Shown piece after piece: positions 17,316-63,495 of a DNA stretch of 64,000 bases. Below the pieces are notes generated by a model, which worked only from the letters and a program-made list of their open reading frames with translations, had not been told where the DNA came from and searched no databases. Within the stretch, counting starts at the first letter, position 1, and every line of letters begins with the position of its first letter. Source of the stretch: an uncultured bacterium (GTDB lineage: Bacteria; Eisenbacteria; RBG-16-71-46; CAZHEV01); NCBI GenBank assembly GCA_964531335.1, contig CAZHEV010000012.1, positions 34,866 to 98,865 on the forward strand. The letters run 5' to 3'. The translations under genes and the position numbers were made by a program.

Positions 17316-17556
17316 ACACGTGCCTCGGATTCGCGGAGGCATTGTGAGGTTGTCGAGATCCAACGCAAACGGCCCTGGAGGCGGAAGCAGATTCGAGGGG
17401 AGTGCTTTGTATGCTGCACCACGTGCAAAGGCAAGGCCGTGTGCCAGCACTAGCCAATTAATATCAATGGTCCATAAGTTCAGCTGATACTTGAGAGCGT
17501 CAGAAAGTAAGCGCTTTAAGTCGCCGTCTGCTCTGCGGCTTTGTGATTGCGAGGCA

Positions 17557-20595: not shown

Positions 20596-21465
20596 CTATC
20601 GCCGCACGAGGTGCGCCACCAAGGCGAGGGCGAGCGCGAAGAAGGTAAAGACCGAGGCGAAGGCGGGAAGGGGATACATCCAGATCCCAGGCCTGGAGAT
20701 GGATGCCGTGCGCTCCTCCCCGATCGTATGCTCGAGCACCCAGTGGATCGCGGGCAGCACCACGGGGATCTTCTTCCAGTTCATGAGCGCGTAGTTGTCG
20801 TAGTCGAATACCTCATATGGGTACGCCGTGTTGGCCCGCGCGTTACGCATGAATAGCGCCCTGTCCTCGCGCAGCTCCTCGGCCGTGGCGGGCGTGCCGT
20901 CCGCGTGCTTGAAGACTATCCCGTAGAGAGGATCGGCGACGGCCCAGCGGCGGTCTATATTCGCGTTTACCACGGCGTGGATTCTATGGTCCAGGCTGTC
21001 CTGCAAAATGAGCGACCGCGAGGGTATCTTGTGGGCGTCGAGAAGCGCCATCACCACCCGCGAGGAGCTCCCGCAGCCCCCCCTGTAGTCGCATCCGTAC
21101 TCGATGACGTCCCTCGCGCTGGGATGGAACGGGTTGAGCTTGTAGTAGAGCTTTACCCAGGTTGACGGAAGATCGTCATAGCCCGGTCTCTCGAGGTCGT
21201 GATAGGCGAACTCCACGAACTTCTCCAGGACCTGCCGGTCGCTGAGGTTCTGGTAGCTCACTATCTCGTCCGCCAGCGCTTCGAAGAACTTCTTGTCCGA
21301 GACATAGGACATGACGGCCAGGGCGTCCACGGCGAGGGCGACCACGACCAGCCAAAGGCCGACCCGCCGCCAGTCTATGCCGTTCTTGCGCTCGGGCGGG
21401 CCGTTGCCGGGGGTCAAGGGCTTCTCGTGGGCCATGCGGGGGCGATTGTCGGACCTGCGTGCCAA
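20596..21465 (-). CDS. membrane-anchored transglutaminase-like cysteine protease-fold protein
   Basis: A 289-aa ORF with an N-terminal TM helix (VGLWLVVVALAVDALAV). The core reads GGCGSSSRVVMALLDAHKIPSRSLIL...HAVVNANIDRRWAVADP, matching the Cys-His-Asp order of transglutaminase-like domains. Confidence 0.65.
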   Translation of the reverse strand: MARRSDNRPRMAHEKPLTPGNGPPERKNGIDWRRVGLWLVVVALAVDALAVMSYVSDKKFFEALADEIVSYQNLSDRQVLEKFVEFAYHDLERPGYDDLPSTWVKLYYKLNPFHPSARDVIEYGCDYRGGCGSSSRVVMALLDAHKIPSRSLILQDSLDHRIHAVVNANIDRRWAVADPLYGIVFKHADGTPATAEELREDRALFMRNARANTAYPYEVFDYDNYALMNWKKIPVVLPAIHWVLEHTIGEERTASISRPGIWMYPLPAFASVFTFFALALALVAHLVRR

Positions 21466-37353: not shown

Positions 37354-38463
37354 TCAAGGCTCCTCTCCGGCCTCAGCCGCCAGGTGATAGACGGCCATCG
37401 CCAGATTCGCAGGGTAGGCGCGCGCGTCGCTCAGGATCCTGTAATCGCCGAAGGAAAACGGCAGGCTCCCGTCGGGCCTCTGCACGCCCAATGTCCACTC
37501 GTAGCCCTTTCGCGACAGTTCCCGGTATTCTCCCAGGCCCCATCGCGTGGCGCACGAAAGCGCATAGGCCAAGGTGTGGGCGTGATAGATGACGCGCGGA
37601 AGCTCGCTCTTGCAGCTATACCTGCAAGCCCCCTCGCCCGTGACCCCGCCCGCCAGAAAAGGGGCCATCTTGGCGGCGATGGACCGGGTCTCCAGGCGCT
37701 CCTTCCTCTTCCAGGAATGATAGAGATCTATCAGTTGAAACGCGTTGTACTGGTAACACTGGTAATGAGGGACGGAGCGGTCGTAGCCCTCCCCGGGGAC
37801 CTCGTAGGGCATCTCCCCGGTCTCTGTCTGCACGTCCTGGAGAAAGGCGAGCAGGGGGTCGGCCATCTTCATCGGCGCGGGGTCGTCCGAGGCGTCGGCG
37901 AGCTCCGAGAGAAACCAGAGCGCGGCGGTGGAGTTATTGGGCACCTTGCCGCGCGGCACGTTGAAGTAGTTGACCGCCGCTCCTTTTGCGCCGTGGCTCT
38001 GGTAACCTATGCGACCTTCCATGAACCTCCACCAGGCCACCGCCGCGTCCAGGCACTTCGCGTCGTCGGTCCGCCTGTATGTGGCCAGCAGTCCCGCGCC
38101 CGCCCAGAGCCCCTCTATGTTGGTCACCAGGTGGCGCCGCTCCGGCATGGGGCTGGGCCAGCTTCCGTCATCGCGCTGGCCTTCCATGCAGAAATCGCTC
38201 GAGGCCATGGCTATCTCGGCGAACCGGTCGTCCTTCGTGAGCCTGTGAAGTAGCCAGTTGCCGAGGATCCAATAGCCCTGGCCCTGGTAGGAGACGACGT
38301 CGTCCCTCCAGGGCAAGAAGGTCGTATATCCCTTGACGAACCGCCAGAACCTGAGGTTCCAGCGAACGCCCGGGGTGGGGCCGCGGAGGGCCTTGCCGTC
38401 CCAGTGCTCCCCCACGAGGTACTGGTGGAGCCTCAGGGCGGACTCGAGGAGGTTCTCTTTCAT
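37354..38463 (-). CDS. hypothetical protein, possibly an (alpha/alpha)6-toroid fold (terpenoid cyclase/prenyltransferase-like repeats)
   Basis: A 369-aa ORF with good coding appearance. The repeated DGSWP / PDGSLPF motifs resemble alpha/alpha-barrel repeat proteins. Function unknown. Confidence 0.6.
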   Translation of the reverse strand: MKENLLESALRLHQYLVGEHWDGKALRGPTPGVRWNLRFWRFVKGYTTFLPWRDDVVSYQGQGYWILGNWLLHRLTKDDRFAEIAMASSDFCMEGQRDDGSWPSPMPERRHLVTNIEGLWAGAGLLATYRRTDDAKCLDAAVAWWRFMEGRIGYQSHGAKGAAVNYFNVPRGKVPNNSTAALWFLSELADASDDPAPMKMADPLLAFLQDVQTETGEMPYEVPGEGYDRSVPHYQCYQYNAFQLIDLYHSWKRKERLETRSIAAKMAPFLAGGVTGEGACRYSCKSELPRVIYHAHTLAYALSCATRWGLGEYRELSRKGYEWTLGVQRPDGSLPFSFGDYRILSDARAYPANLAMAVYHLAAEAGEEP

Positions 38464-38626
38464 GCTAACGGCCTCTCTGAGAGATGTTTTGCCGTATTCT
38501 AGCAGCGTTTAGGAGAGACGGTCAACGAGCGCGTGCGGGGGAGGGCGCGCGGGGGATGGCGTGCAGGCATGCGCCGGGTTCGCTGGTGAGGGCCCATCAC
38601 CCCTGAGGGCGCCCGCATCCGACGGA

Positions 38627-38650
38627 ACGGTGTGTGCAAACGGTGTGTGC
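38627..38650. repeat. tandem 11-nt direct repeat ACGGTGTGTGC x2 upstream of DGR target 1
   Basis: ACGGTGTGTGC occurs at 38627-38637 and again at 38640-38650 (13-nt period), about 135 nt upstream of the GTG start at 38783. Confidence 0.6.
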
Positions 38651-38782
38651 GAAAGCACTTGAAGAATCCCATGTATGGGGCCAATATTGAGTGGCTTATA
38701 TCCGATAAGGTGCGCTGAAACATCCAGGCAAATCGCAGACAAGTAGAAGAACTTCGGTAATGGCTGAGGCGGAGGTGTCGTT

Positions 38783-41782
38783 GTGAGACTTGTCAGAGTT
38801 TTTGTCTCATCTCCGGGAGACGTCCAGGAGGAGCGCAGGGTCCTGGAAGAGGTGGTGGACTCAGTTAACGGCGACGTCGGCGAGAGGCACTCCGTCTTCC
38901 TGAAGCTCTTTCGGTGGGAGAAGGACGTCGTTCCGCGGATAGGGCCCGCTCCTCAGGAGGTAGTGGACGCCCAGGCTCCCTATTGCGACATCTTCCTTGG
39001 GATCATGTCCGGCCGGTTCGGGACTAGAACGGGCAAGTGGGGCTCCGGGACGGAGCACGAGTTTCGCCAGGCGGTAGAGAGGTGGGGGAGGAGCGATTCC
39101 CCCTGGATCCTTTTCTACTTCGACGACGAGCCGCCGACACCGAAGACGCGTGATGCGGCCATGCAGTTCGCCAAGGTTTTGGAGTTTCGCGAGGAACTCA
39201 AGAAGCTCGGGATTACGGGCAGCTACAAAGGCGTGCAGGGCGACCGTTCTTCGTTTGCCTGGCAAGCCGGCGAGCACCTGCGCCGGATCGTGCTCAATCA
39301 TCTGCCGCCAATTGAATCGGGGGAAGGCGCCGGGGCGAAAAGACCGGCGCCCGGCCACATGGTAGAGGCCGGACTCAAACCACCTGCCGTTCCAAAGGCG
39401 TACCGCGACTGGCTATGTTCCCAGTGCTCGGAGATCGGCCTCCTGGGTCTCGAGCTCAAGCAGTCCCACGCCGTAAGGCTCAGCCATGTGTACGTCCCGC
39501 TATGCACTCACGCTGTCTCCGAAAAGAAGCGCGGCGAGCGTTCCCGCCGTGAAGACGAGCGCTTCCTGACCGACATGCCCGGGCGTGAGGCCAAGCCGCG
39601 GTTGCTCCTTGATCTTCTCGGGAAGGAGTCCCTCTACGTTCCCGGGGCGCCGGGGGCGGGCAAGTCGACCTTCTGCCGGTGGGTGGCGTGGCTTGTTTGC
39701 AACGCTGACATGCCTTCCTACATAACCGAAGCCGCGGACACCCCGGAGGGCTACGCTGAGAGCTTTCCCAGCGCCTTTGGCGGGAGACTCCCGGTCCTGA
39801 TCAGGCTGCGCGAGTTCTGGGAGTACCTGCCACGCTCGCCGGGTCGATGCGAGATGACAAAGGACGAGCTGGATAGAGCAATCGGAGAGTGGTTCGAGAA
39901 CAAGACGCCCAAGGGCATCGAATGGACCGGCGGCAGCGGGCGGGCGGACCTTGCGACTCATATGGAGCAGGGCTCGGCGATCCTGATATTGGACGGGGCC
40001 GACGAGGTGCCGCTCTCCGGCGAAGAGAAAAGGCCCTGCTCTCCGCGTGCGATGCTCCTGTCGGGCCTCGCCTCGGCCGTACCGTCATGGATGAAGACCG
40101 GCAATCGGGTCCTGCTGACGAGCCGCCCCTACGGGCTGGGCACTCGGGAGTCCGAGACGCTGGGCCTTAGGCAGGCGCCCATAGTAGAGCTGGACCCTGA
40201 CCTCCAGAACCTTCTCATTATACGCTGGTTTGCGATCCTTGAAGGTGACTCCGCTACCGGCGAGGAGGTGGCCCGGGAGATGATCACGCACATACGCGGT
40301 CGCAACGACATAGATCCTCTTGCCTCAAATCCGATGCTCCTCACCGCGATGTGCGTGATATACGGCGAGGGCAAGCGCCTACCCCAGGATAAGCACGATC
40401 TCTACACGCGTATCGTCAACAACGTGCTGTACAACCGGTTCCACCGCGATCCGACGCTTATCGACCCGGTCCGCAACCGTCTCGCCGTCGTTGCGCACGG
40501 AATGCACACAGGTGAAGCTCTCGAAGAGGACAGAACAGCTCCCCAGGTGGAGGCGACGAACGAGGAGATAGACATAATCCTCCGGGACTACCAGGACAAC
40601 GTGCCGTTTACCGAGTCCGCCTTCGTGGACGCCGTCCAGGCGCGCGAGCAGCTTCTGGCCGAGTCCGGGCTGCTGCTGCCCCGCGGGGAGGGCAGGGCGG
40701 GGTTCTACCACCTCTCCTTCCAGGAGTTCCTCGCCGCACAGAGGCTCATGGAGCTGGATGCAGCACGCCTCCGGGAGGTATTCCGAGAGCGAGCGGAAAC
40801 CTCCGAGTGGAGAAACACTCTTTCGTTCCTGTTCAGCTCAAGACTGGCCGGATCGGTGTCCCCGGAGGGGAGCACCAGGTTGCTGGCGGAACTGCTGAGC
40901 GAAGTCTCCGTTGAGAAGCTCGGGCTGCACGTGGTCGTGGCGGACTGTTTTCAAATACTGCTGGGAAAGGGGATCCGGCTTCCGGAGGCTCTCGAGGAGA
41001 AGTTCCGAAAGGACTGCCTGAGCGCGATCAAGGCGGAGGTCTCCATTCCCGAAAGGGTGCATCTCGGGCTGGTGCTGGGGCAGATAGGCCACCCCAGAAT
41101 TGTGACGGATCTCAGGGACAGGGCCGCGTATGTGGAGGTGCCGCCAAAGCGGTATTTTGTGGGCGAGAAACGAAAGCGTTTTGATTTGAAAGAGAGTTTT
41201 CTGCTCTCGCGATATCCGGTGACCAACGGGCAATATGCGGTCTTCGTTGAAGAAGAGGGATACAAGGATCGGAAGTGGTGGTCTGATGAGGGATGGAAGT
41301 GGCGTGAAAGTGAAGACGTCCGCGAACCCGGCTACTGGCACGATCGTACCTGGAATGGTCCCACTCAGCCGGTCGTGGGCGTATCGTTCTACGAGGCGGA
41401 GGCGTTCGCGCGCTGGGCCGGAGGCCGTCTGCCCGCCGAGAGGGAATGGGAAGCGGCGGCACGAGGGCCGGAAGGATACGTCTATCCCTGGGGGGACGAC
41501 TGGGAGGAAGGTATCTGCAACAGCGATGAGTCCGGCGTCGGCGCCACAACGCCGGTCGGCCTCTTCCCTCGGTCTCGGTCGGCGCCGTTCGAGCTGGAGG
41601 ACATGTCGGGCAACGTGTGGGAATGGTGCTCGGATTACTATGACCCGACGGGGTCGCCCGGAGCCCGTGTTCTGCGCGGCGGTTCCTGGATCTATGGATC
41701 GAGGGGCCTGCGCGCCGCCATTCGCCTCAGGGGCGTCCCCGTCCTCCGGGTCGTCAGCATAGGATTTCGGGTTGTCTTGTGA
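38783..41782 (+). CDS. DGR target 1: NLR-like STAND NTPase (DUF4062/TIR-like N-domain, NACHT, HEAT-like linker, C-terminal FGE-type C-type-lectin fold carrying VR1)
   Basis: A 999-aa ORF starting at GTG 38783, with GGAGG upstream. The N-terminus reads VRVFVSSPGDVQEERR...CDIFLGIMSGRFG...ILFYFDD. Walker A GAPGAGKST is at 39644-39670 and Walker B ILILDGADE at 39980-40006. The FGE/SUMF1-like domain spans about 41129-41779 (YPVTNGQY...VVGVSFYEAEAFARWAGGRLPAEREWE...GNVWEWC...RGGSW...IGFRVVL). Confidence 0.93.
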   Translation: MRLVRVFVSSPGDVQEERRVLEEVVDSVNGDVGERHSVFLKLFRWEKDVVPRIGPAPQEVVDAQAPYCDIFLGIMSGRFGTRTGKWGSGTEHEFRQAVERWGRSDSPWILFYFDDEPPTPKTRDAAMQFAKVLEFREELKKLGITGSYKGVQGDRSSFAWQAGEHLRRIVLNHLPPIESGEGAGAKRPAPGHMVEAGLKPPAVPKAYRDWLCSQCSEIGLLGLELKQSHAVRLSHVYVPLCTHAVSEKKRGERSRREDERFLTDMPGREAKPRLLLDLLGKESLYVPGAPGAGKSTFCRWVAWLVCNADMPSYITEAADTPEGYAESFPSAFGGRLPVLIRLREFWEYLPRSPGRCEMTKDELDRAIGEWFENKTPKGIEWTGGSGRADLATHMEQGSAILILDGADEVPLSGEEKRPCSPRAMLLSGLASAVPSWMKTGNRVLLTSRPYGLGTRESETLGLRQAPIVELDPDLQNLLIIRWFAILEGDSATGEEVAREMITHIRGRNDIDPLASNPMLLTAMCVIYGEGKRLPQDKHDLYTRIVNNVLYNRFHRDPTLIDPVRNRLAVVAHGMHTGEALEEDRTAPQVEATNEEIDIILRDYQDNVPFTESAFVDAVQAREQLLAESGLLLPRGEGRAGFYHLSFQEFLAAQRLMELDAARLREVFRERAETSEWRNTLSFLFSSRLAGSVSPEGSTRLLAELLSEVSVEKLGLHVVVADCFQILLGKGIRLPEALEEKFRKDCLSAIKAEVSIPERVHLGLVLGQIGHPRIVTDLRDRAAYVEVPPKRYFVGEKRKRFDLKESFLLSRYPVTNGQYAVFVEEEGYKDRKWWSDEGWKWRESEDVREPGYWHDRTWNGPTQPVVGVSFYEAEAFARWAGGRLPAEREWEAAARGPEGYVYPWGDDWEEGICNSDESGVGATTPVGLFPRSRSAPFELEDMSGNVWEWCSDYYDPTGSPGARVLRGGSWIYGSRGLRAAIRLRGVPVLRVVSIGFRVVL

Positions 41783-41799
41783 ATTGGCGTCAGGACTCC
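41666..41799 (+). repeat. DGR variable repeat 1 (VR1) plus IMH-like 3' end
   Basis: Aligns to TR 43428-43561 at offset 1762. There are 19 differences, all at TR adenines (hand alignment). It includes the target 1 stop codon at 41780-41782. Confidence 0.92.
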
Positions 41800-41836
41800 G
41801 TATCAGCTTGGCCCCTTTACATTTGTCTTTCTCTGT

Positions 41837-41860
41837 GGCGTCGCGATTTGCCGTGACGCC
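41837..41860 (+). other. stem-loop downstream of VR1
   Basis: GGCGTCGCG (41837-41845) pairs with CGTGACGCC (41852-41860), giving 9 bp including one G-T pair, with a 6-nt loop. It lies about 55 nt after the target 1 stop and before avd. Confidence 0.45.
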
Positions 41861-41887
41861 GCAAGTGCTTTGCGGGACTACACAGCT

Positions 41888-42265
41888 ATGCCGGAAGCCT
41901 CCTCGGAAATGTTGTTGATTACGAAAATGTATGACTTCGTGCTGTGGAGCTGCCGGCACATCGCCAAGTTTCCGCGAAGCCACCGTTTCACTCTCGGCGA
42001 CAGGATGGAGGTCCGACTGTACGAGTTGCTCGAGCTTTTTCTGAGGGCGAAGTATTCTCGTGATCGGCTTCCAACTCTGCGGAAGGCCAACATGGAGCTG
42101 GAGCTACTTCGCTTCCAGTTTCGTCTCGCGAAGGACTTGGAGTGCCTTTCGGTGAAAAGCTACGGCTGCTCCTCACGCACTGTGAATGAAATCGGCAAGC
42201 TACTGGGCGGGTGGGTCAAGAAAGCCTCCGCGAAACCGGTGCAAACCCCAAGGCGGCAACCATGA
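41888..42265 (+). CDS. avd: DGR accessory variability determinant (Avd; four-helix-bundle / 23S rRNA IVS-protein family)
   Basis: ORF 41870-42265 (TTG); ATG 41888 or 41909 is the likely start. The sequence LLITKMYDFVLWSCRHIAKFPRSHRFTLGDRMEVRLYELLELFLRA...LELLRFQFRLAKDL matches the helical FP-(K/R)-x-x-(R/K)-(F/Y)-x-L-G-D-(Q/R) pattern of this family. Its position immediately upstream of the RT also fits. Confidence 0.85.
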   Translation: MPEASSEMLLITKMYDFVLWSCRHIAKFPRSHRFTLGDRMEVRLYELLELFLRAKYSRDRLPTLRKANMELELLRFQFRLAKDLECLSVKSYGCSSRTVNEIGKLLGGWVKKASAKPVQTPRRQP

Positions 42266-42297
42266 CTCCCTTCGCAAGCAGATGAGATGAAGGACAG

Positions 42298-43362
42298 GTG
42301 AGAAGACAAGGCGGCATCTGGGAGGAGCTCATTAGCTTCCCGAATCTTCTGCGGGCGGCCCAGAAGGCCGCCCGCGGCAAGCGGGCTCGGTCGAACGTGG
42401 CTCGGTTCCACCTGGACCTGGAAGGGCAGCTCTGTCGGCTCCAGGACGAGCTTATCGCGAAGACTTACCTTCCGGGTCAGTATCGAACCTTCGCGATACA
42501 TGAGCCGAAGGCCCGCACTATCAGCGCCGCACCGTACCGGGATCGTGTCGTCCATCACGGCCTTTGCCAAGTGCTGGAGCCGGCATTCGAACGTCGGTTC
42601 ATCTTCGACAGCTACGCGTGCCGCAAGGGAAAGGGGACTCATGCGGCGCTGGCCCGCTTCACGCAGTTCGCCAGAAGAAACCGCTACGTCCTCAAGTGCG
42701 ACGTTCGAAGGTACTTCCCGTCTATCGACCATGAGATCTTGAAGGGACAAGTCCGAAGGAGGATCAAGGACCGGGACGCCCTGTGGTTGGTCGATCTGAT
42801 CGTCGATCATTCCAATCCACAGGAACCTGTGTGCGACTGGTTTCCCGGAGACAATCTGCTCACGCCTTCAGAGCGGCGCCGTGGTCTTCCGATTGGCAAC
42901 CAGACAAGCCAGTTCTTTGCCAACGTCTATCTCGATCCGCTGGACCACTACGTCAAGGAGCGGCTGCGAGCGCGCTACTACATTCGCTACGTCGACGACT
43001 TTGTTGTCTTCGGGGATGACAAAGAGTGGCTCTCAGACGTGCGGGATCGGTGCGCGGGGTTCGCTCGCGGCCTTCGTCTGGCTCTACACGAGCGAAAGTG
43101 CGTGATATCCCGCACCTGCGATGGTACGCGATTCCTCGGTTTTCGCGTCTTCCCTACTCACAGGCTGCTCGCGCGGGAGAACGTCGCCCGGACGAGGCGG
43201 CGGCTCCGGTGGCTTGGGGGCGAGTTCGCCGCGGGTCACGTGTCGGCGGCTGATGTGAGCCGCCGCATTATGAGCTGGATAGGGCACGCTCAGCACGGAG
43301 ATACATTCCGCTTGCGCTCCAGGCTCTTCAGGGAGAATACTTTCTCACGGAAGGGCGAGTAG
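42298..43362 (+). CDS. DGR-type reverse transcriptase
   Basis: A 354-aa ORF starting at GTG. RT motifs include [50 protein letters not shown] (the [ILV]GxxxSQ variant that I recall as DGR-specific) and [12 protein letters not shown] (YxDD). Confidence 0.95.
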
Positions 43363-43427
43363 GTCCTCTTAGGCGGGTGGTTCGCCGGCGGATGTCACGG
43401 TACCTTCTCGGGGGGCGGTCGTAACTT

Positions 43428-43561
43428 CGTGTTCTGCGCGGCGGTTCCTGGAACAATGAATCGAGGAACATGCGCGCCGCCATTCGCAACAGGAACAACC
43501 CCGACAACCGGAACGACAACATAGGATTTCGGGTTGTCTTGTGAATTGGCGTCAGTACTCC
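43428..43561 (+). repeat. DGR template repeat (TR) with IMH*-like 3' end
   Basis: This non-coding copy lies 66 nt downstream of the RT stop and is rich in AAC triplets. In the target frame it would read [38 protein letters not shown]. It is the adenine-bearing parent of VR1 and VR2. Confidence 0.92.
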
Positions 43562-43718
43562 ACATGGAAGCTTCGGGCATGGCAATTGCGTTGTCCAAGG
43601 AGGGCCGGAGCCGGCCGATTCACGGATCGGACGGGAGCGCCCCCGTGGGAGTCCAGACCGCCGTCCGGCGTCGGCCGCATGGCCCGGGGCCTCAGTCGGC
43701 CGGCCGAAACAACAAACC

Positions 43719-43763
43719 GTCCCGCGGGGACTGGTAGGCCCCGGCCGAAGGCCCCCGCGGGAC
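43719..43763 (+). other. strong GC-rich stem-loop downstream of the TR
   Basis: GTCCCGCGGGG (43719-43729) is the perfect reverse complement of CCCCGCGGGAC (43753-43763), across a 23-nt loop. It lies about 160 nt after the TR end and about 65 nt before the ATPase gene. Confidence 0.6.
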
Positions 43764-43826
43764 TCGTCAAGAGCATTCGTTCTAGCGCGATCTGAAGGAA
43801 GACGCCGCATGAGGAGGGCGGAAGGG

Positions 43827-45056
43827 ATGCTGAGCAAGGAAGATGAGGGTCTTCTGAAGAAGGCACTGAACGTCTTTGACCCGGCGCGTCCACTTGAGGG
43901 CGAGCTGTTGGACAGCTTCTACATTTCTAGGCCCCATGCGCCCTTGAAGGCAATGAAGGCCTATCTCCGTGCCAACCAGAGCCCCGTCAAGGTGCTTTTC
44001 TGCGGTCACAGGGGTTGCGGGAAGTCAACGGAGCTTGCGCGTCTGGCAAAGGATCTGGAAAATGAGTTCTTAATTGTCCCGGTCTCGGCCCGATCGCTCG
44101 ACCTGGCCGATCTCACCTATGTCGATGTCATCCTTGCCTCCGCGGCGGGATTGTTCCTCCAGGCAAGCTCGGTGAAAGGCGCGGCTAGGATCAAGTCAAG
44201 CGTGCTGAAAGACGTGCTGGAGTGGCTTGGGAGCGAGATCGTCCGGGAAACGACGGTGTCCGTCTTGAAGTCGGGAAATATGGGCGCGAAGCTGAGTGTT
44301 TTGATACTCAGCCTCCAAGGCAAGTACTCGAGTGAGACGACCACGCGCAAGACGGTGAGAGACCGCCTGTATCGGCAGGTAAGCGACCTCATTCAGCGCA
44401 TGGATGCCGTATGCGAAGAGCTGGAGAAGAAAGGCGTTCCGCCGCTGATACTCTTTGAAGATATAGACAAGGCGGATCTGGAGAGGGCACGAGGTCTGTT
44501 CGTAGAACATAGGAACACCATGATCAGCCCGGCATGCAGGATAATCTATACTTTTCCGATTTCATTGAGACATTCACACGAGTTTCCGGCCATTCGACGT
44601 GACTACAGCAAGGTGTTCTCTCTCCCAAACATCAGTATCAACGAGAGAAATGGTTCGATCGACGCGCGGGGGCGTGAGGCCATAGGGTCCGTGATTACAC
44701 GAAGAATCCCGGGGGAAGTCTTCGAGAAGAAGGCCTTCGATTCCATTGTGGAATTGAGCGGAGGACTTATGACGGACCTGGTTCGCCTTGTCTCGGATGC
44801 CGCCCTTATCGCCTTGACCGAAGGATCCTCGCACATTACAAATGAGATAGTGGAACGTGTCGAGGCTGAGATGGCTAACGACTACCGTAGGATTCTTGTG
44901 TCCGAGCACTATGATGCGTTGAGGCGCTCACTCAGTGAAAAAGAGTTCGTTGCCGACGATGTGACCCGCGAATTGCTGGCGAACCAAAGCCTTCTTGAAT
45001 ATCGCAATAACAAAGTGTGGTGCGACGTACACCCCATTGTTCGAGGGTTGTTGTGA
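43827..45056 (+). CDS. P-loop AAA+ ATPase (ORC/Cdc6-like or STAND-related), function unknown
   Basis: ORF 43809-45056 (ATG at 43809 or 43827). Walker A is FCGHRGCGKSTEL and Walker B is PPLILFEDIDKAD, followed by an alpha-helical C-terminal half. The stop TGA (45054-45056) overlaps the ATG of target 2 (45056). Confidence 0.85.
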   Translation: MLSKEDEGLLKKALNVFDPARPLEGELLDSFYISRPHAPLKAMKAYLRANQSPVKVLFCGHRGCGKSTELARLAKDLENEFLIVPVSARSLDLADLTYVDVILASAAGLFLQASSVKGAARIKSSVLKDVLEWLGSEIVRETTVSVLKSGNMGAKLSVLILSLQGKYSSETTTRKTVRDRLYRQVSDLIQRMDAVCEELEKKGVPPLILFEDIDKADLERARGLFVEHRNTMISPACRIIYTFPISLRHSHEFPAIRRDYSKVFSLPNISINERNGSIDARGREAIGSVITRRIPGEVFEKKAFDSIVELSGGLMTDLVRLVSDAALIALTEGSSHITNEIVERVEAEMANDYRRILVSEHYDALRRSLSEKEFVADDVTRELLANQSLLEYRNNKVWCDVHPIVRGLL

Positions 45057-48000
45057 TGGGAACTAGGATCGATATGGATGCGCCGCTACAGCGGCTGGTA
45101 ACCTTGCTGAAGAACCTCGAGGAGGGAGCGATAATCTTTGCCGTCTATGATATGGCGGACGTTCCAGGTCGAGCTATCGGAGCTCTCAGAGCCCTGCTGG
45201 AGGGCCGCGTTCTGGAGCTCCGCATCGACAGGGAGCACAGAAACCCCGTCGATCTGGTTCGTTCTGCTGATGCGCGAAAGGGCGACGTGCTTTGCGTCCT
45301 GAACCTGGAGGAGGGCTTTCCGGACGCATTGGGCTATCTGGATCTTCAGCGGGAGGAGCTATTGGAATTCGGTGTGCCGGTCGTGATCTGGGTGACGCCG
45401 CACGAGCACCGCGAAGTAATAAGAAGAGCCCCGAACCTATACAGGTTCAGGAAAACGCTTGTGGACTTCAGGAGGGCCGGCTCCGAGGGACCACTTGAAT
45501 CCCGATCCGTACCCAAGGTCTTCATCTCGTCGACTGTAGAGGATCTGCGGCCGTATCGCGAGGCGGCGCGGGACGCGGCCATCAACGCGGGCTTCTTCCC
45601 TGTGATGATGGAGTATTTCACGGCCGTCGGCAGACCCCCGCTCGATGAGTGCATGGGCAAAGTGTCCGAGGCCCACCTGGTCGTAGTTATCCTCGCGCAT
45701 CGCTACGGGTGGGTCCCGGATGACCAGCCGGCCGGTGGAGACAAGAGTATCACCTGGCTTGAATGTGAGAGGGCGGAGCAGGAAGGCAAGGAGGTCCTGG
45801 CGTTTATCGTCGATGACGCCCGGAGTTGGCCCGAGGAGCGCCGAGAGGAGCACGATCTGGCTGTCGCCGCGAGAGAGAGCAAAGCGACCCCTGAGTTGCT
45901 GGAGAGGGTCCAGACAAGAGTTGCACGCCTGAGGCAGTTCAAGCGCTGGCTGGACGGCCGCGGGGTGCGCGTGACATTCACGACGCCCGAGGACCTGCAC
46001 GGGAAGATCTCGAATGCCCTGCACGCCTGGAGAAGCCGACATCCGGGCTTGGCCCAGAGTGCGGCCAAAACGCCCGCCCTGCCCGCCGACCCTGCGCGGT
46101 ATCTGAAGTACGTTCGGGAACAGACGGCGTACATAGACATCCGAGGGCTTCAGGTGGGCAGCGGCAAGGTCTTCCGATTTCCCATAGAGGACCTCTATAT
46201 CACTCTCACGACCACGGCCTCCGCGGAGACGGCTAAAGAGGAGAAGCGCAAGGGCAGGAAGGCGCGCGATGAGGCGGACCCCATGATGTCTCGCAGGGAC
46301 TCGTCCGTTCCTCTTCACAAGGCCCTGGCGAAGCGCCGGCTCGTGGTGGTCGGCGATCCCGGCTCCGGCAAGACGACGTTTCTGAGACGCGTCGCGTCCA
46401 CGCTTTCCCAGACGGCGCTCGGCGAGGTTCCCGACGCGGCGAAGAGTCGGCTGGGTCTGGCGGGAAAGCCGCTTCCGGTATTCGTCCGGCTGGTAGAGCT
46501 CGCCGAGCACATCGAGGAGAGTCGCCGCGTCCACGGCGGTCGGCGTCCATTGGCTCGCGACGCCGCTCGATGGCTGCCGCACTTTCTGGCATCCACAACC
46601 GAGGACGGGGGGCATGGGCTTGACGAGGAGTACTTCCGGGAACGCTTGGAGAAAGGCGATTGCGCGATCCTTCTCGACGGGTTGGACGAGGTCCCCACCC
46701 GTCCTTCTCGCGAGGGGATGTCCCGGCTCATAGAAAGGCTGGCCGGCGCCTATAAGGGCTGCATCCTCGTGGTCACCAGCCGCCCCGCCGCGTACACGGG
46801 GGAGACGGTGCTCCCCGGCTTTACACACGCGCGGATCGAATCGCTCGAAGAAGAAGCAATCGCAACCTTCCTCGGGAAGTGGTCGGGCGCTCTCTGTCCT
46901 GAGAGCCCCGGCGAGGCCGAACGCCACCGCGACGAGCTTGCGGGGGCTCTGACAAGCCGCCCGGAGATAAAGCGCATGGCGCGGAACCCGGTGATGCTCA
47001 CGGCGCTTGCCGTGGTCCATTGGAACGAGAGGCGGCTCCCGGAGCAGAGGGCGGATCTCTACCAGTCGATCATAAGATGGCTGTCCAGATCCCGCGAGCA
47101 GCGCTCTGAGAGGCTCCCCTCGGACAGATGTGTCGCCGTGTTGCAGGAGCTCGCCCTGGCCATGCAGAGTCACCCCGAAGGCCGCCAGGTCCAGGTGACG
47201 AGGCGATGGGCGGCGGAGGCGATCGCCGTCGAGCTCACCGGCGAGGGAGCGCAGCGCGCCGTGGCGGAGGCGCCCTCGGTGCGCGAGACCGCAAGATATG
47301 GCGCAGATGACATGAAGCCCGCGGGCGAGCCGTCGAGGCACGCCATAGAGCTGGCAGAACGCTTCCTCGAGGAGGAGGAGCAAGACAGCGGGATAGTGGT
47401 AGGCCGCGGAAACGAGATCCGCTTCTGGCATCTCACCTTTCAGGAATACCTGGCGGCGCGGGCTATTGCCGCCCGCTCCGAGGCGGAGCAGAAGGCGCTA
47501 CTTTTCGGCGATAGTGACAGAATCCACCGCCCCGACTGGCGCGAGGTCGTCCTGCTGCTGACTGGGGTGTTGCACCAGCAGGGCAGACAAAAGGTGGATG
47601 GGTTCGTATCCCAGGCGCTCGACATGATCGGAGAGAGGCCGAGCCTCTCCCGTCAGGCGCGGTGCGCCGGTCTTCTGGGCGCCCTTCTCCGCGATCTGGC
47701 CCCCCTGGACTATAGGATTTCCGACGCAAGATATCCGAAGCTCCTCGATACGGTCATGGGCGTATTCGACGCGAAGCGCTCGAGGTCGGTTTCCATTGAG
47801 GAGCGCGTCGAGGCGGCGGAGGCGCTGGGCCAGGCGGGCGACCCCCGACTGAACATGAACGATCCCGATCGCTGGATACACATACCCAAGAAGCCCTTCC
47901 TCATGGGAGCTCAGAAAAAGGATCCAACGAAGCCCGGTTACGATCCGGGGGCTGACGATGACGAGGCGCCGGTGAGGACAGTAAACCTCGATGCCTACCG

Positions 48001-48598
48001 GATCGGGCGCTACCCGGTGACGGTGGAGGAGTACGAGCGGTTCGTCGAGCACGGGGGCTACGAGGAGAAGCGTTGGTGGAAGGAGGGGGGCTTCGGGCAG
48101 TTCGCCGAGCCGGGGGACTGGGAAGAACAGCTCGCACACCCCAATCGCCCTGTTGTGGGTGTGAGTTGGTATGAGGCGGCTGCGTACGCGGCGTGGGCGG
48201 GGTGCGGGCTTCCCACGGAGGCTCAGTGGGAGAGGGCGGCCAGGGGCACGGACGGCCGAAAGTACCCCTGGGGGGACGATCCGCCCGATCCCGCCAGATG
48301 CAATTACGAAGAGACCAGGCTTGGACGCGCGACGCCCGTGGGTGTCTTCCCGCTGGGCGCGACACCGGAGGGCGTTTGCGACATGGCCGGAAACGTCTGG
48401 GAGTGGTGTCAAGATTGGTACAGTGAGGCATACGAGCCCGGCCGGCTTGACAACCCTCGGGGGCCTGACAGAGGGACACTTCGTGTTCTGCGCGGCGGTT
48501 CCTGGGGCTATGTATCGTGGAACTTGCGCGCCGCCATTCGCGGCGGGGGCAACCCCGGCGACCGGCTCGACGACCTGGGGTTTCGGGTTGTCTTGTGA
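45056..48598 (+). CDS. DGR target 2: NLR-like STAND NTPase (unknown N-module, DUF4062, NACHT, HEAT-like linker, C-terminal FGE-type C-type-lectin fold carrying VR2)
   Basis: ORF 45017-48598. ATG 45056 overlaps the upstream stop (ATGA). The DUF4062-like region KVFISSTVEDLRPYREAARDAAINAGFFPVMMEYF...ILAHRYGWVP...ITWLECERA...VLAFIVDD spans about 45515-45830. Walker A GDPGSGKTT is at 46352-46378 and Walker B ILLDGLDE at 46667-46690. The FGE-like domain spans about 47873-48595 and ends ...RGGSWGYVSWNLRAAIRGGGNPGDRLDDLGFRVVL. Confidence 0.93.
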   Translation: MGTRIDMDAPLQRLVTLLKNLEEGAIIFAVYDMADVPGRAIGALRALLEGRVLELRIDREHRNPVDLVRSADARKGDVLCVLNLEEGFPDALGYLDLQREELLEFGVPVVIWVTPHEHREVIRRAPNLYRFRKTLVDFRRAGSEGPLESRSVPKVFISSTVEDLRPYREAARDAAINAGFFPVMMEYFTAVGRPPLDECMGKVSEAHLVVVILAHRYGWVPDDQPAGGDKSITWLECERAEQEGKEVLAFIVDDARSWPEERREEHDLAVAARESKATPELLERVQTRVARLRQFKRWLDGRGVRVTFTTPEDLHGKISNALHAWRSRHPGLAQSAAKTPALPADPARYLKYVREQTAYIDIRGLQVGSGKVFRFPIEDLYITLTTTASAETAKEEKRKGRKARDEADPMMSRRDSSVPLHKALAKRRLVVVGDPGSGKTTFLRRVASTLSQTALGEVPDAAKSRLGLAGKPLPVFVRLVELAEHIEESRRVHGGRRPLARDAARWLPHFLASTTEDGGHGLDEEYFRERLEKGDCAILLDGLDEVPTRPSREGMSRLIERLAGAYKGCILVVTSRPAAYTGETVLPGFTHARIESLEEEAIATFLGKWSGALCPESPGEAERHRDELAGALTSRPEIKRMARNPVMLTALAVVHWNERRLPEQRADLYQSIIRWLSRSREQRSERLPSDRCVAVLQELALAMQSHPEGRQVQVTRRWAAEAIAVELTGEGAQRAVAEAPSVRETARYGADDMKPAGEPSRHAIELAERFLEEEEQDSGIVVGRGNEIRFWHLTFQEYLAARAIAARSEAEQKALLFGDSDRIHRPDWREVVLLLTGVLHQQGRQKVDGFVSQALDMIGERPSLSRQARCAGLLGALLRDLAPLDYRISDARYPKLLDTVMGVFDAKRSRSVSIEERVEAAEALGQAGDPRLNMNDPDRWIHIPKKPFLMGAQKKDPTKPGYDPGADDDEAPVRTVNLDAYRIGRYPVTVEEYERFVEHGGYEEKRWWKEGGFGQFAEPGDWEEQLAHPNRPVVGVSWYEAAAYAAWAGCGLPTEAQWERAARGTDGRKYPWGDDPPDPARCNYEETRLGRATPVGVFPLGATPEGVCDMAGNVWEWCQDWYSEAYEPGRLDNPRGPDRGTLRVLRGGSWGYVSWNLRAAIRGGGNPGDRLDDLGFRVVL

Positions 48599-48615
48599 AT
48601 TGGCGTCAGGACTCC
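48482..48615 (+). repeat. DGR variable repeat 2 (VR2) plus IMH-like 3' end
   Basis: Aligns to TR 43428-43561 at offset 5054. There are 19 differences, all at TR adenines (hand alignment). It includes the target 2 stop codon at 48596-48598. Confidence 0.92.
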
Positions 48616-48967
48616 GTAACGGTTTAGCCCCTTTACAGGTCCGCCGGGCACGCGCCCTCACGTCCGGGGAGCACGGCACGTCTCCGAGTTGTCCACCCGG
48701 CCGCCCCCGCTTGTACCATCTCGTAGCCTGTGCTAACATAATCTCGGTAATTGGCGGAGGCAAGCAGGGTGAGAGCTGGATGACCTCCTCACAGGATTGG
48801 TTTGGTTCCTCACGGCCTGGGCCGGACGTGGCCTGGCCCTGGCCGCAACGAACTTTGCCTTACACTTTCACTCGAGCCCTGACGATTTTGGACTTCTGGC
48901 GTTGTCCCGGCGCCGCCGCTCGCGGCGGCGGCCCTGAGATCGGATTACCCCAGGGCGAAAAGGACGT

Positions 48968-60115: not shown

Positions 60116-60192
60116 GCGGAAGTAGCTCAGTCCGGTAGAGCTCCACCTTGCCAAGGTGGCCGTCGCGGGTTCAAATCCCGTCTTCCGCTCCA
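60116..60192 (+). tRNA. tRNA-Gly (anticodon GCC), CCA encoded
   Basis: Hand-folded cloverleaf. The acceptor is GCGGAAG/CTTCCGC and the D-arm is GCTC-AGTCCGGTA-GAGC. The anticodon arm is CCACC-TTGCCAA-GGTGG and the T-arm is GCGGG-TTCAAAT-CCCGT. The discriminator is T, followed by CCA. Confidence 0.93.
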
Positions 60193-60252
60193 AATACTGC
60201 CTAGAGGCTTTGGGCAGTGCCGCGCGGTCGGAGCCGATTCGTCGAAACGGAA

Positions 60253-60327
60253 GGCGGCATAGCCAAGGGGTAAGGCGACGGTCTGCAAAACCGTTATTCT
60301 CCGGTTCAAATCCGGATGCCGCCTCCA
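60253..60327 (+). tRNA. tRNA-Cys (anticodon GCA), CCA encoded
   Basis: Hand-folded. The acceptor is GGCGGCA/TGCCGCC, the anticodon arm is ACGGT-CTGCAAA-ACCGT and the T-arm is TCCGG-TTCAAAT-CCGGA. The discriminator is T, followed by CCA. Confidence 0.9.
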
Positions 60328-63407: not shown

Positions 63408-63495
63408 GCCGGGGTGGCGGAACAGGTAGACGCTGCGGACTTAAAATCCGCTGGAGTATTTCTCCGTGCCGGTTCGATTCCGGCCCCCGGCACCA
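63408..63495 (+). tRNA. tRNA-Leu (anticodon TAA), long variable arm, CCA encoded
   Basis: Hand-folded. The acceptor is GCCGGGG/CCCCGGC and the anticodon arm is GCGGA-CTTAAAA-TCCGC. The variable arm is TGGAGTATTTCTCCGT and the T-arm is GCCGG-TTCGATT-CCGGC. The discriminator is A, followed by CCA. Confidence 0.92.

Follow-up and report, generated by a model that had tools for sequence, protein, structure and literature searches.

Evidence that one template repeat serves two target genes in a diversity-generating retroelement of an uncultured bacterium

Can a single template repeat of a diversity-generating retroelement (DGR) supply sequence variation to two separate genes, one on either side of it, and do both genes look like live acceptors? 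This question is raised by a stretch of 64,000 nucleotides from an uncultured bacterium of the lineage Eisenbacteria (GenBank assembly GCA_964531335.1, contig CAZHEV010000012.1, positions 34,866 to 98,865), which is here called the window and to which all coordinates refer. An earlier note on this DNA had proposed that one template repeat (TR) serves two variable repeats (VR1 and VR2), which lie in target genes 1.8 kb upstream (target 1) and 5 kb downstream (target 2) of the TR. Here, we provide evidence from comparative sequence analysis that the region from 38.8 to 48.6 kb is, very probably, a single complete DGR with one template and two acceptor genes. All features of the element lie on the forward (+) strand.

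Adenine-specific differences between the template and two variable repeats

The TR (43428..43561) is non-coding and begins 66 nt past the stop codon of the reverse transcriptase (RT) gene. VR1 (41666..41799) and VR2 (48482..48615) each comprise the final 39 codons of their target gene and 17 nt past its stop codon. Both VRs were compared with the TR base by base and without gaps, VR1 at an offset of -1762 and VR2 at an offset of +5054, which is exactly the offset given in the earlier note for the second repeat copy in the coding sequence 45056-48598. The coding part of VR2 differs from the TR by 19 substitutions, and all 19 fall on TR adenines (43452, 53, 55, 59, 64, 70, 88, 89, 91, 94, 95, 43504, 06, 12, 13, 18, 21, 23 and 26), the same 19 positions that had been counted by hand. 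VR1 likewise carries 19 substitutions in its coding part, 19/19 at TR adenines. Chance placement of all 19 mismatches on adenines has a probability of 1.6e-14 for each VR (hypergeometric; 32 adenines among 128 positions). Conversely, every non-adenine coding base matches the TR in both VRs (85/85), including 35/35 of the non-adenine third codon positions, and VR2 equals the TR at each non-adenine base over 132 nt (43424-43555). Homology to the TR starts at 43424 for VR2 and at 43428 for VR1, i.e., VR2 shares four more bases at the 5' end (43424-27).

These substitutions leave no doubt about their direction, as it is the non-coding copy beside the RT gene that is A-rich. A scaffold pattern with N at the adenine positions has exactly three copies in the window and none in 100 shuffled sequences; the TR is the sole A-rich, non-coding copy among the three, and translation in its frame is closed by a stop codon just upstream. 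No third VR was found in the window at up to three mismatches. The TR holds 18 adenine-bearing codons, including nine AAC and one AAT, none of which can mutate to a stop codon, and about 10^15 protein variants are possible from it.

The three-way alignment confirms the relationship of VR1, TR and VR2 and reveals where the similarity of the two targets changes. While the non-adenine scaffold is fully conserved inside the VRs, the DNA of the two target genes directly upstream of the VRs is 57% identical (280/489) with many indels. The FGE-sulfatase (formylglycine-generating enzyme-type) domains outside the VRs share 46% of their residues (76/164), in agreement with the previous estimate of about half. 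Such a sharp identity boundary is the product that would be expected of rewriting from a shared template, and together with the adenine-only differences and the clean scaffolds in both VRs it bears out the proposal that one TR serves two target genes.

The two VRs are, by their patterns of change, separate draws from the template and not copies of one another. The adenine-mutagenised zone of the TR (43452-43526) contains 29 adenines, 26 of which are changed in at least one VR, as counted before; 25.6 would be expected if the VRs had been mutated independently. Twelve positions are mutated in both VRs (12.4 expected under independence), and at 4 of these 12 the two VRs carry the same base, where one third is expected. 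The earlier observation that the VR2 pattern differs from that of VR1 thus holds, with an overlap that fits independence. The three adenines unchanged in both VRs (43456, 43460 and 43482) were considered as sites of special meaning, which was rejected as 3.4 such positions are expected by chance.

Genes of the retroelement

The gene order is target 1 (38783..41782), avd (accessory variability determinant, 41870..42265, with a likely ATG start a few codons within the open reading frame), RT (42298..43362, 354 aa), TR, a GC-rich spacer of about 250 nt, a P-loop ATPase gene (43809..45056) and target 2 (45056..48598). The reading frames of Avd, the RT and the two targets are all intact. Avd matches Pfam bAvd with 83.8 bits (cut-off 40) and the NCBIfam model NF033474, "DGR protein Avd", with 111.4 bits (curated cut-off 80), and its structural match is Bbp7 (PDB 4dwl, E 0.003). 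The RT matches Pfam RVT_1 (E 1.2e-20) and possesses both the motif IGNQTSQ, which conforms to the DGR signature [I/L/V]GxxxSQ, and YVDD, an instance of the catalytic YxDD. Its best solved relative is 8ub7 (entries 8ub7-8ube; 328 aa, E 1.8e-53), while the best group II intron RT reached 7.7e-22; 8ub7 is identified here as the Bordetella RT, bRT, by its length and by a preprint (bioRxiv 10.1101/2023.10.23.563531), not by the entry name. The locus thereby combines adenine-only TR/VR differences, a DGR-type RT, an adjoining Avd, a C-terminal VR on a C-type-lectin (CLec)-fold domain and a difference of the IMH/IMH* kind (initiation of mutagenic homing), which are features of DGR membership; in DGRs at large the accessory protein may be Avd or HRDC, and the fold of the target C-type lectin or Ig.

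The nearest RT relative in the databases searched is 70% identical, and relatives at 50-70% identity occur in cyanobacteria, Poribacteria, Planctomycetota and Thiomargarita. The nearest relatives of the DGR are in metagenome-assembled genomes of Planctomycetota. These RT relatives are compatible with DGR clade 5, short of a placement in it.

A single base and a short flank distinguish acceptors from donor

Within 43428-43561 there is one non-adenine mismatch. The TR has T at 43556, 12 nt past the position of the stop codon, and both VRs have G (41794 and 48610), each in the context CAG-N-ACTCC. The earlier note had expected VR2 to differ from the TR at adenines only; this stands for the coding part, and the mismatch at 43556 is formally a departure from it. 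It does not overturn the proposal, as the base is situated beyond the coding part that undergoes mutagenesis, where a difference of the IMH/IMH* kind is expected. The note had also described at least 17 nt of identical 3' flank and explained it by repeated overwriting from the TR. Between VR1 and VR2 the identical flank indeed extends over 20 nt, but identity to the TR ends 11 nt past the stop codon. Overwriting can thus account for the flank up to 43555; from 43556 on the VRs share sequence that is foreign to the TR.

This shared sequence continues beyond the repeats. After 43561 the TR diverges fully, whereas the VRs remain 18/22 identical for 22 nt more (41800-41821 and 48616-48637; GTAtCaGcTTgGCCCCTTTACA versus GTAaCgGtTTaGCCCCTTTACA). 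Since it has no counterpart in the TR, the VR-shared sequence was not copied from there. By comparison across related elements, the VR-only flank appears to be a target-side, IMH-like recognition element that is kept across the clade.

The comparison covered 80 genome loci that encode related RTs. In 28/28 related TR/VR pairs whose VR reads G-G-ACT, the corresponding TR base is C or T, and the same discriminator (C/T in the TR, G in the VR, within CAG-N-ACTCC) is present in the closest relative found, a 20-kb metagenome contig from the Joint Genome Institute (JGI 3300037422; hereafter L084), which also shares GAGTCCAGACCGCCGTCCGGCG after its TR. In the alignment of the RNA that follows the TR (A4), the discriminator falls on column 10, an unpaired position within helix P1, and none of the 40 TRs has G there. 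The single non-adenine mismatch is thus the IMH/IMH* difference of this clade and supports the donor/acceptor relationship of TR and VRs. A clade-wide base of this kind, G versus C/T and unpaired within a template-primer helix, could alone set the polarity between donor and acceptor.

A motif resembling TAGCCCTTT follows 40/65 related VRs and 0/65 TRs, a count that is descriptive only, as the regular expression was written post hoc. In the window, the VR-specific 3' flank at 48616..48637 (counterpart 41800-41821) contains the pyrimidine-rich, VR-only motif TTAGCCCCTTTACA, and the other VR flank contains TTGGCCCCTTTACA; both are akin to TAGCCCTTT and to the VR flanks of the related loci L002-L068. 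We regard this motif as a candidate target-recognition element that may replace the GC-rich IMH and the cruciform of the Bordetella phage DGR.

A probable structured RNA follows the template repeat

Neither VR carries any of the RNA segment that follows the TR (43557..43659). The minimum free energy fold of 43551-43662 forms helix P1 (ACUCC at 43557-61 with GGAGU at 43648-52) and a hairpin (43611-19/43626-34), and the segment includes the conserved GGAGUCCAGACC at 43648-59. In the relatives, ACTCTTC after the discriminator pairs with GAAGAGT about 50 nt downstream; inside this helix is a stem of 9 bp that is capped by a GGGA loop, and a conserved CCAGACC forms the end of the element. The alignment of the clade (A4, loci L007 to L079) accordingly displays a closing helix, a 9-bp GNRA-capped stem and the conserved AGUCCAGACC.

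RNAalifold predicted 19 base pairs for the 40-locus alignment, 13 of them with compensatory changes. In total, 98.7% of the alignment cells are paired in the consensus, none of 500 shuffles reached any of the measures (0/500), and slid controls stayed at or below 53%. A covariance model built from this alignment found the element in 17 further loci. The version in the window is longer and matches the clade element weakly. A fold of the complete 271-nt spacer between TR and ATPase gene was no better than shuffled sequences (z -1.47), and the RNA signal is therefore informative only through the comparative alignment. No Rfam family other than a chance IRES (internal ribosome entry site) match was found in 36-52 kb at E<=1.

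An element of this kind has been described in DGRs before (bioRxiv 10.1101/2023.10.23.563531). In Bordetella it forms a duplex of template and primer (TR:Sp), and a 9-bp stem-loop that binds Avd lies just past the TR in 207/278 DGRs, with GNRA loops in cyanobacteria. The TR-flanking RNA of the clade studied here matches this description.

Target proteins and a coupled ATPase

Target 1 (38783..41782, 999 aa) encodes DUF4062, a putative TIR-like NADase domain (31.2 bits, Pfam cut-off 24.7), a NACHT-type P-loop NTPase and a C-terminal FGE-sulfatase domain of CLec fold (1.8e-47) that carries VR1. Its N-terminus matches the PADLOC candidate defence family PDC-S60 (6.6e-32). Target 2 (45056..48598) is 1180 aa long from the ATG at 45056 (alternative starts are a GTG at 45017 and an ATG at 45074) and consists of an N-terminal domain of about 150 aa, DUF4062 (5.2e-20), NACHT (40.5 bits, cut-off 26.7) and an FGE-sulfatase domain of CLec fold (4.2e-57) with VR2. 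For the C-terminus of target 2, the matches comprise FGE, EgtB and TvpA, a DGR variable protein of Treponema (2y3c, 9e-11), and TvpA was matched by the C-terminal domains of both targets. The two proteins are paralogous (31% identity over 884 aa) and contain the Walker A motifs GAPGAGKST and GDPGSGKTT. Together, these homologies suggest that both targets are NLR-like (NOD-like receptor-like) proteins with a DUF4062 effector, a NACHT switch and a hypervariable sensor.

The S-x-T-x-x-E motif of DUF4062 reads SGTEHE in target 1 (38783-39100) and SITWLE in target 2 (45506-45800), where W replaces the first Glu, a change that may touch the catalytic glutamate. Target 2 has a weak match to the structure of KpSwz (10wc, E 0.012). 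The first approximately 150 aa of target 2 (45056-45505) match no Pfam family even at E<=1 and are conserved in the L084 orthologue; they appear to be a domain of no matched family that precedes DUF4062.

Target 2 is coupled to the P-loop ATPase gene, an open reading frame of 415 aa (43809..45056; called as 409 aa from 43827) whose stop codon TGA (45054-56) overlaps the ATG of target 2 (45056) by one base. The ATPase weakly matches several P-loop families, AAA_16 among them, and is a member of a family of proteins of about 410 aa with 538 matches at E<=1e-5 and no good Pfam model. Homologues are encoded directly upstream of STAND (signal transduction ATPases that possess numerous domains) NTPase genes in L084 (9774-10730), where the STAND gene is the DGR target, and in another locus, L085 (8001-9293), where the ATPase homologue is followed by a tetratricopeptide repeat (TPR)-STAND gene with no DGR nearby. 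This suggests that the ATPase and a STAND protein constitute a two-gene module, the sensor of which is either a DGR-diversified CLec domain or a TPR domain.

The single DGR target of L084 is 57% identical to target 2 over its full length and 28.5% identical to target 1, and the ATPase and RT of L084 are 53% and 69% identical to those of the window. L084 differs in possessing a single VR and no gene similar to target 1, and its ATPase-target pair precedes avd, in the position that target 1 occupies in the window. Target 2, linked to its ATPase by translational coupling, is the partner conserved in this RT lineage, and target 1 is the more divergent, extra target. Homologues of the ATPase and of the DUF4062/NACHT region are essentially absent from the 80 RT-related genome loci; the N-terminal modules of the targets are swapped freely among related DGRs.

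DUF4062 has been described as the NADase effector of STAND defence proteins (bioRxiv 10.64898/2026.05.01.722283; 10.64898/2026.09.04.749371), and three preprints from 2026, these two among them, show it to be a TIR-like NADase or a domain of anti-phage defence, also in the role of effector in an Avs-type STAND protein. It is intriguing to propose that the DGR programs a pair of NADase-armed, NLR-like receptors, one of them with an obligate partner ATPase. This proposal is tentative, and we would sooner doubt it than assert it. If true, each cell would harbour two independently redrawn sensors of about 10^15 possible variants, coupled to NAD+ depletion. Such a pair would be the first case to tie the newly characterised DUF4062/NIR NADase effector explicitly to DGR hypervariation, and the two receptors would form an "adaptive-like" module fit for reconstitution.

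Alternative explanations and present activity

Could the adenine bias be incidental, and the similarity of the VRs have arisen by ordinary duplication or by gene conversion between the paralogous FGE domains, with no retroelement involved? The targets are indeed paralogous, and conversion can yield sharply bounded identical tracts. However, it cannot place 38/38 differences on the adenines of a third, non-coding copy, and this A-rich copy adjoins an Avd-RT pair; in addition, the architecture, the discriminator and the TR-flanking RNA recur in dozens of related loci. Adenine-only differences thus effectively refute this explanation, which we consider extremely improbable. Equally little credence can be given to the idea that an unseen template in another part of the genome, and not the TR at 43428, supplies VR2. 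The visible part of the genome is limited to 64 kb, and several DGRs as well as remote targets are present in some genomes (PMC7517822; PMC10907252), but no non-adenine base of VR2 departs from the TR along 132 nt, a stretch that includes the four bases missing from VR1. Another template would have to be identical to the TR, and the window contains no other repeat copy or RT signal.

VR2 might also be a relic acceptor that was written at least once from the TR and now preserves the last event in frozen form, because diversification of target 2, or of the element as a whole, has ceased. Strong differences in activity between the targets of a single DGR are reported (Doré et al., PMC10907252), and VR2 is separated from the TR by 5 kb and by another gene, while the second VR in related two-VR loci is mostly 1-2 kb from its TR. 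The missing cruciform (see below) fits a relic as well, as does the outcome of our contig, protein and Logan searches, which retrieved no population variation. The VR scaffold, with each adenine position set to N, had 0 matches among JGI metagenome contigs, and the last 132 aa of target 2, used as a protein query, returned nothing closer than 62% identity; the window's own protein was also unlisted in that search. Exact-protein look-ups found only Logan contigs of one run, SRR7048218, and this independent assembly agrees with the window at 100% identity. These points are opposed by the absence of any non-adenine difference in the 85 coding bases of VR2, 35/35 third positions included, and the last write is therefore recent when measured against neutral drift. 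VR2 has kept the discriminator G and the VR-only flank, both of which match VR1; the RT, Avd and TR are intact, as are both reading frames, and it is target 2 that is the conserved partner of the RT lineage. We therefore regard the relic as unlikely. Intact genes, clean scaffolds and an intact target-side element rather argue for recent activity of both VRs, and it is from these features that we infer the status of VR2 as the live acceptor envisaged in the earlier note.

The Logan contigs of run SRR7048218 (L081, L082 and L083) end in a 38-nt stretch that is common to VR1, TR and VR2 (41765-41802 and counterparts). Breaks at this stretch are explained by the expected failure of k-mer assembly there, and they should be borne in mind when VR variants are called from assemblies.

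Several findings weigh against our interpretation of the locus as an active DGR with two defence-related targets. Each VR is represented by one sequence, which gives no direct sign of current activity. The covariance model has its best match within 12 kb, both strands considered, at 43584-43660 of the window, which is the place expected for the element, and this match is weak (14.1 bits, E 0.023). The NACHT match of target 1 (23.4 bits) lies under the Pfam cut-off of 26.7, and it is domain homology from which a defence or sensor role of both targets is deduced. Finally, neither VR is followed by a GC-rich inverted repeat, cruciform or terminator; folds of the downstream DNA did not differ favourably from shuffled sequences (z +1.48 and +0.95), and no hairpin is common to both. 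A cruciform after the VR is required for efficient homing in the Bordetella and Legionella elements. Across DGRs in general, a downstream GC-rich inverted repeat is present in only 34% (PMC5758913), and its absence here does not affect membership of the locus among DGRs.

Proposed mechanism of diversification

By analogy to the Bordetella phage DGR, diversification could proceed as follows. The avd-RT-TR transcript would fold such that the end of the TR pairs with the downstream segment (ACUCC with GGAGU), and the neighbouring stem-loop would bind Avd. The RT-Avd complex might then self-prime at the folded site, start cDNA synthesis at about 43555-43556 and copy the TR, placing random bases opposite adenines. 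With the start of cDNA synthesis at this point, no information 3' of 43555-43556 would be transferred. The cDNA would replace the homologous stretch in either target. On the 3' side it may be guided by the element present in targets only (CAG-G-ACTCC and then GTA..TAGCCCCTTTACA), while simple homology, beginning at 43428 (VR1) or 43424 (VR2), would serve on the 5' side. The base at 43556 would mark the donor (T in the TR) and the acceptor (G in the VR). Each event could rewrite up to 18 codons on the ligand-binding face of the CLec-fold domain without creating a stop codon, and the most likely purpose would be to vary recognition by two intracellular sensors of a conflict or defence system.

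Comparison with known retroelements and STAND proteins

Two-target DGRs are common and typical of the STAND-NTPase-targeting "clade 5D", and STAND targets are likewise well documented. Two or more targets are present in 13-15% of DGRs (Wu et al. 2018, PMC5758913). Our scan for adenine-biased repeats in the 80 related loci identified a TR in about 50 and two VRs per TR in about 13, where the second VR is often downstream of the TR. In multi-target DGRs (PMC5758913; DiGReF and myDGR surveys), mutagenesis patterns and 5' boundaries differ by target, as they do here (43428 versus 43424). Nothing of substance separates the present locus from these elements, and both of its VRs are clean, with no indels and no non-adenine coding changes.

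The DGRs of clade 5D, by which STAND-NTPase "antigen sensors" of multicellular bacteria are diversified (Doré et al. 2024, PMC10907252; e.g., DGR 6 and DGR 3 of Thiohalocapsa PB-PSB1), likewise combine one RT and TR with two targets, and each target has a single C-terminal FGE-type CLec domain with the VR and a central STAND NTPase (NACHT or nSTAND1). The hosts of RT relatives are also shared, namely cyanobacteria, Thiomargarita, planctomycetes and similar organisms. N-terminal domains of effector type are a further common trait; those in PMC10907252 are TIR or peptidase domains, and the effector here is DUF4062 (the NIR NADase domain), which is not named in that paper. Target 2 further differs from clade 5D targets by the coupled P-loop ATPase of about 410 aa upstream and by the extra N-domain of 150 aa.

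The Bordetella phage BPP-1 DGR (mtd-avd-TR-brt) is similar in its Avd and DGR RT, in adenine-specific changes at the 3' end of a gene for a CLec-fold protein, in a TR/VR difference of the IMH/IMH* kind directly behind the zone of mutagenesis, and in a TR 3' end that is predicted to pair with downstream RNA beside a stem-loop. However, the order in the window is target-avd-RT-TR with the TR after the RT, while the BPP-1 TR precedes its RT, and two targets are present where BPP-1 has one. The window lacks both the 14-bp GC-rich IMH block and a cruciform after the VRs. Its targets are putative cytoplasmic, NLR-like proteins in place of a phage tail fibre, and the setting is chromosomal, within a polysaccharide gene cluster.

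The antiviral, Avs/NLR-like STAND protein PsAvs2 (10.64898/2026.09.04.749371) and Swarozyc (10.64898/2026.05.01.722283) resemble the targets in the succession of an N-terminal DUF4062 effector, a STAND NTPase and a C-terminal sensor. Target 1 and target 2 both score above the Pfam cut-off for DUF4062. Their sensors are germline TPR or other repeats, whereas the sensor here is a DGR-diversified CLec domain, and DGRs are mentioned in neither of the two preprints.

As two-target layouts and STAND-NTPase targets were documented before, the known picture of DGRs is unchanged by this locus. Its value is that of a clean, intact specimen with two acceptors under independent adenine mutagenesis, a one-base discriminator, and the combination of DUF4062/NIR with a hypervariable lectin-fold sensor. 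The specimen comes from a host without close sequenced relatives and with an RT only 70% identical to anything in the databases searched. If active, the element would be suited to asking how one template chooses between two targets and whether DGR-varied STAND proteins act as programmable immune sensors.

Genomic surroundings

The DGR cassette of about 10 kb (38500-48950) interrupts a nucleotide-sugar/polysaccharide cluster with glycosyltransferase, carbamoyltransferase, epimerase/dehydratase and nucleotidyl-transferase genes. Its GC content at third codon positions (GC3) is 0.66-0.76, compared with 0.80-0.87 in the flanking genes. The lower GC3 and the placement inside the polysaccharide cluster suggest that the cassette was horizontally acquired, and it is probably an island of this kind. 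Four conserved neighbouring proteins are singletons at 90% clustering.

Two further open reading frames on the reverse strand are well supported (GC3 0.84-0.87) and have no Pfam match; one of them (37354-38463, 369 aa) directly flanks the DGR island, and the other is located at 20596-21465 (289 aa). An open reading frame of 984 aa (17491-20445) resides in a foreign-looking, low-GC patch (GC 0.50 versus 0.62; GC3 0.54), and its lone match is a sub-threshold beta-galactosidase trimerisation domain. Besides tRNA genes, no rRNA gene or other Rfam family was detected in the window; the tRNA genes, for tRNA-Gly(GCC), tRNA-Cys(GCA) and tRNA-Leu(TAA), are located at 60116-60327 and 63408-63495.

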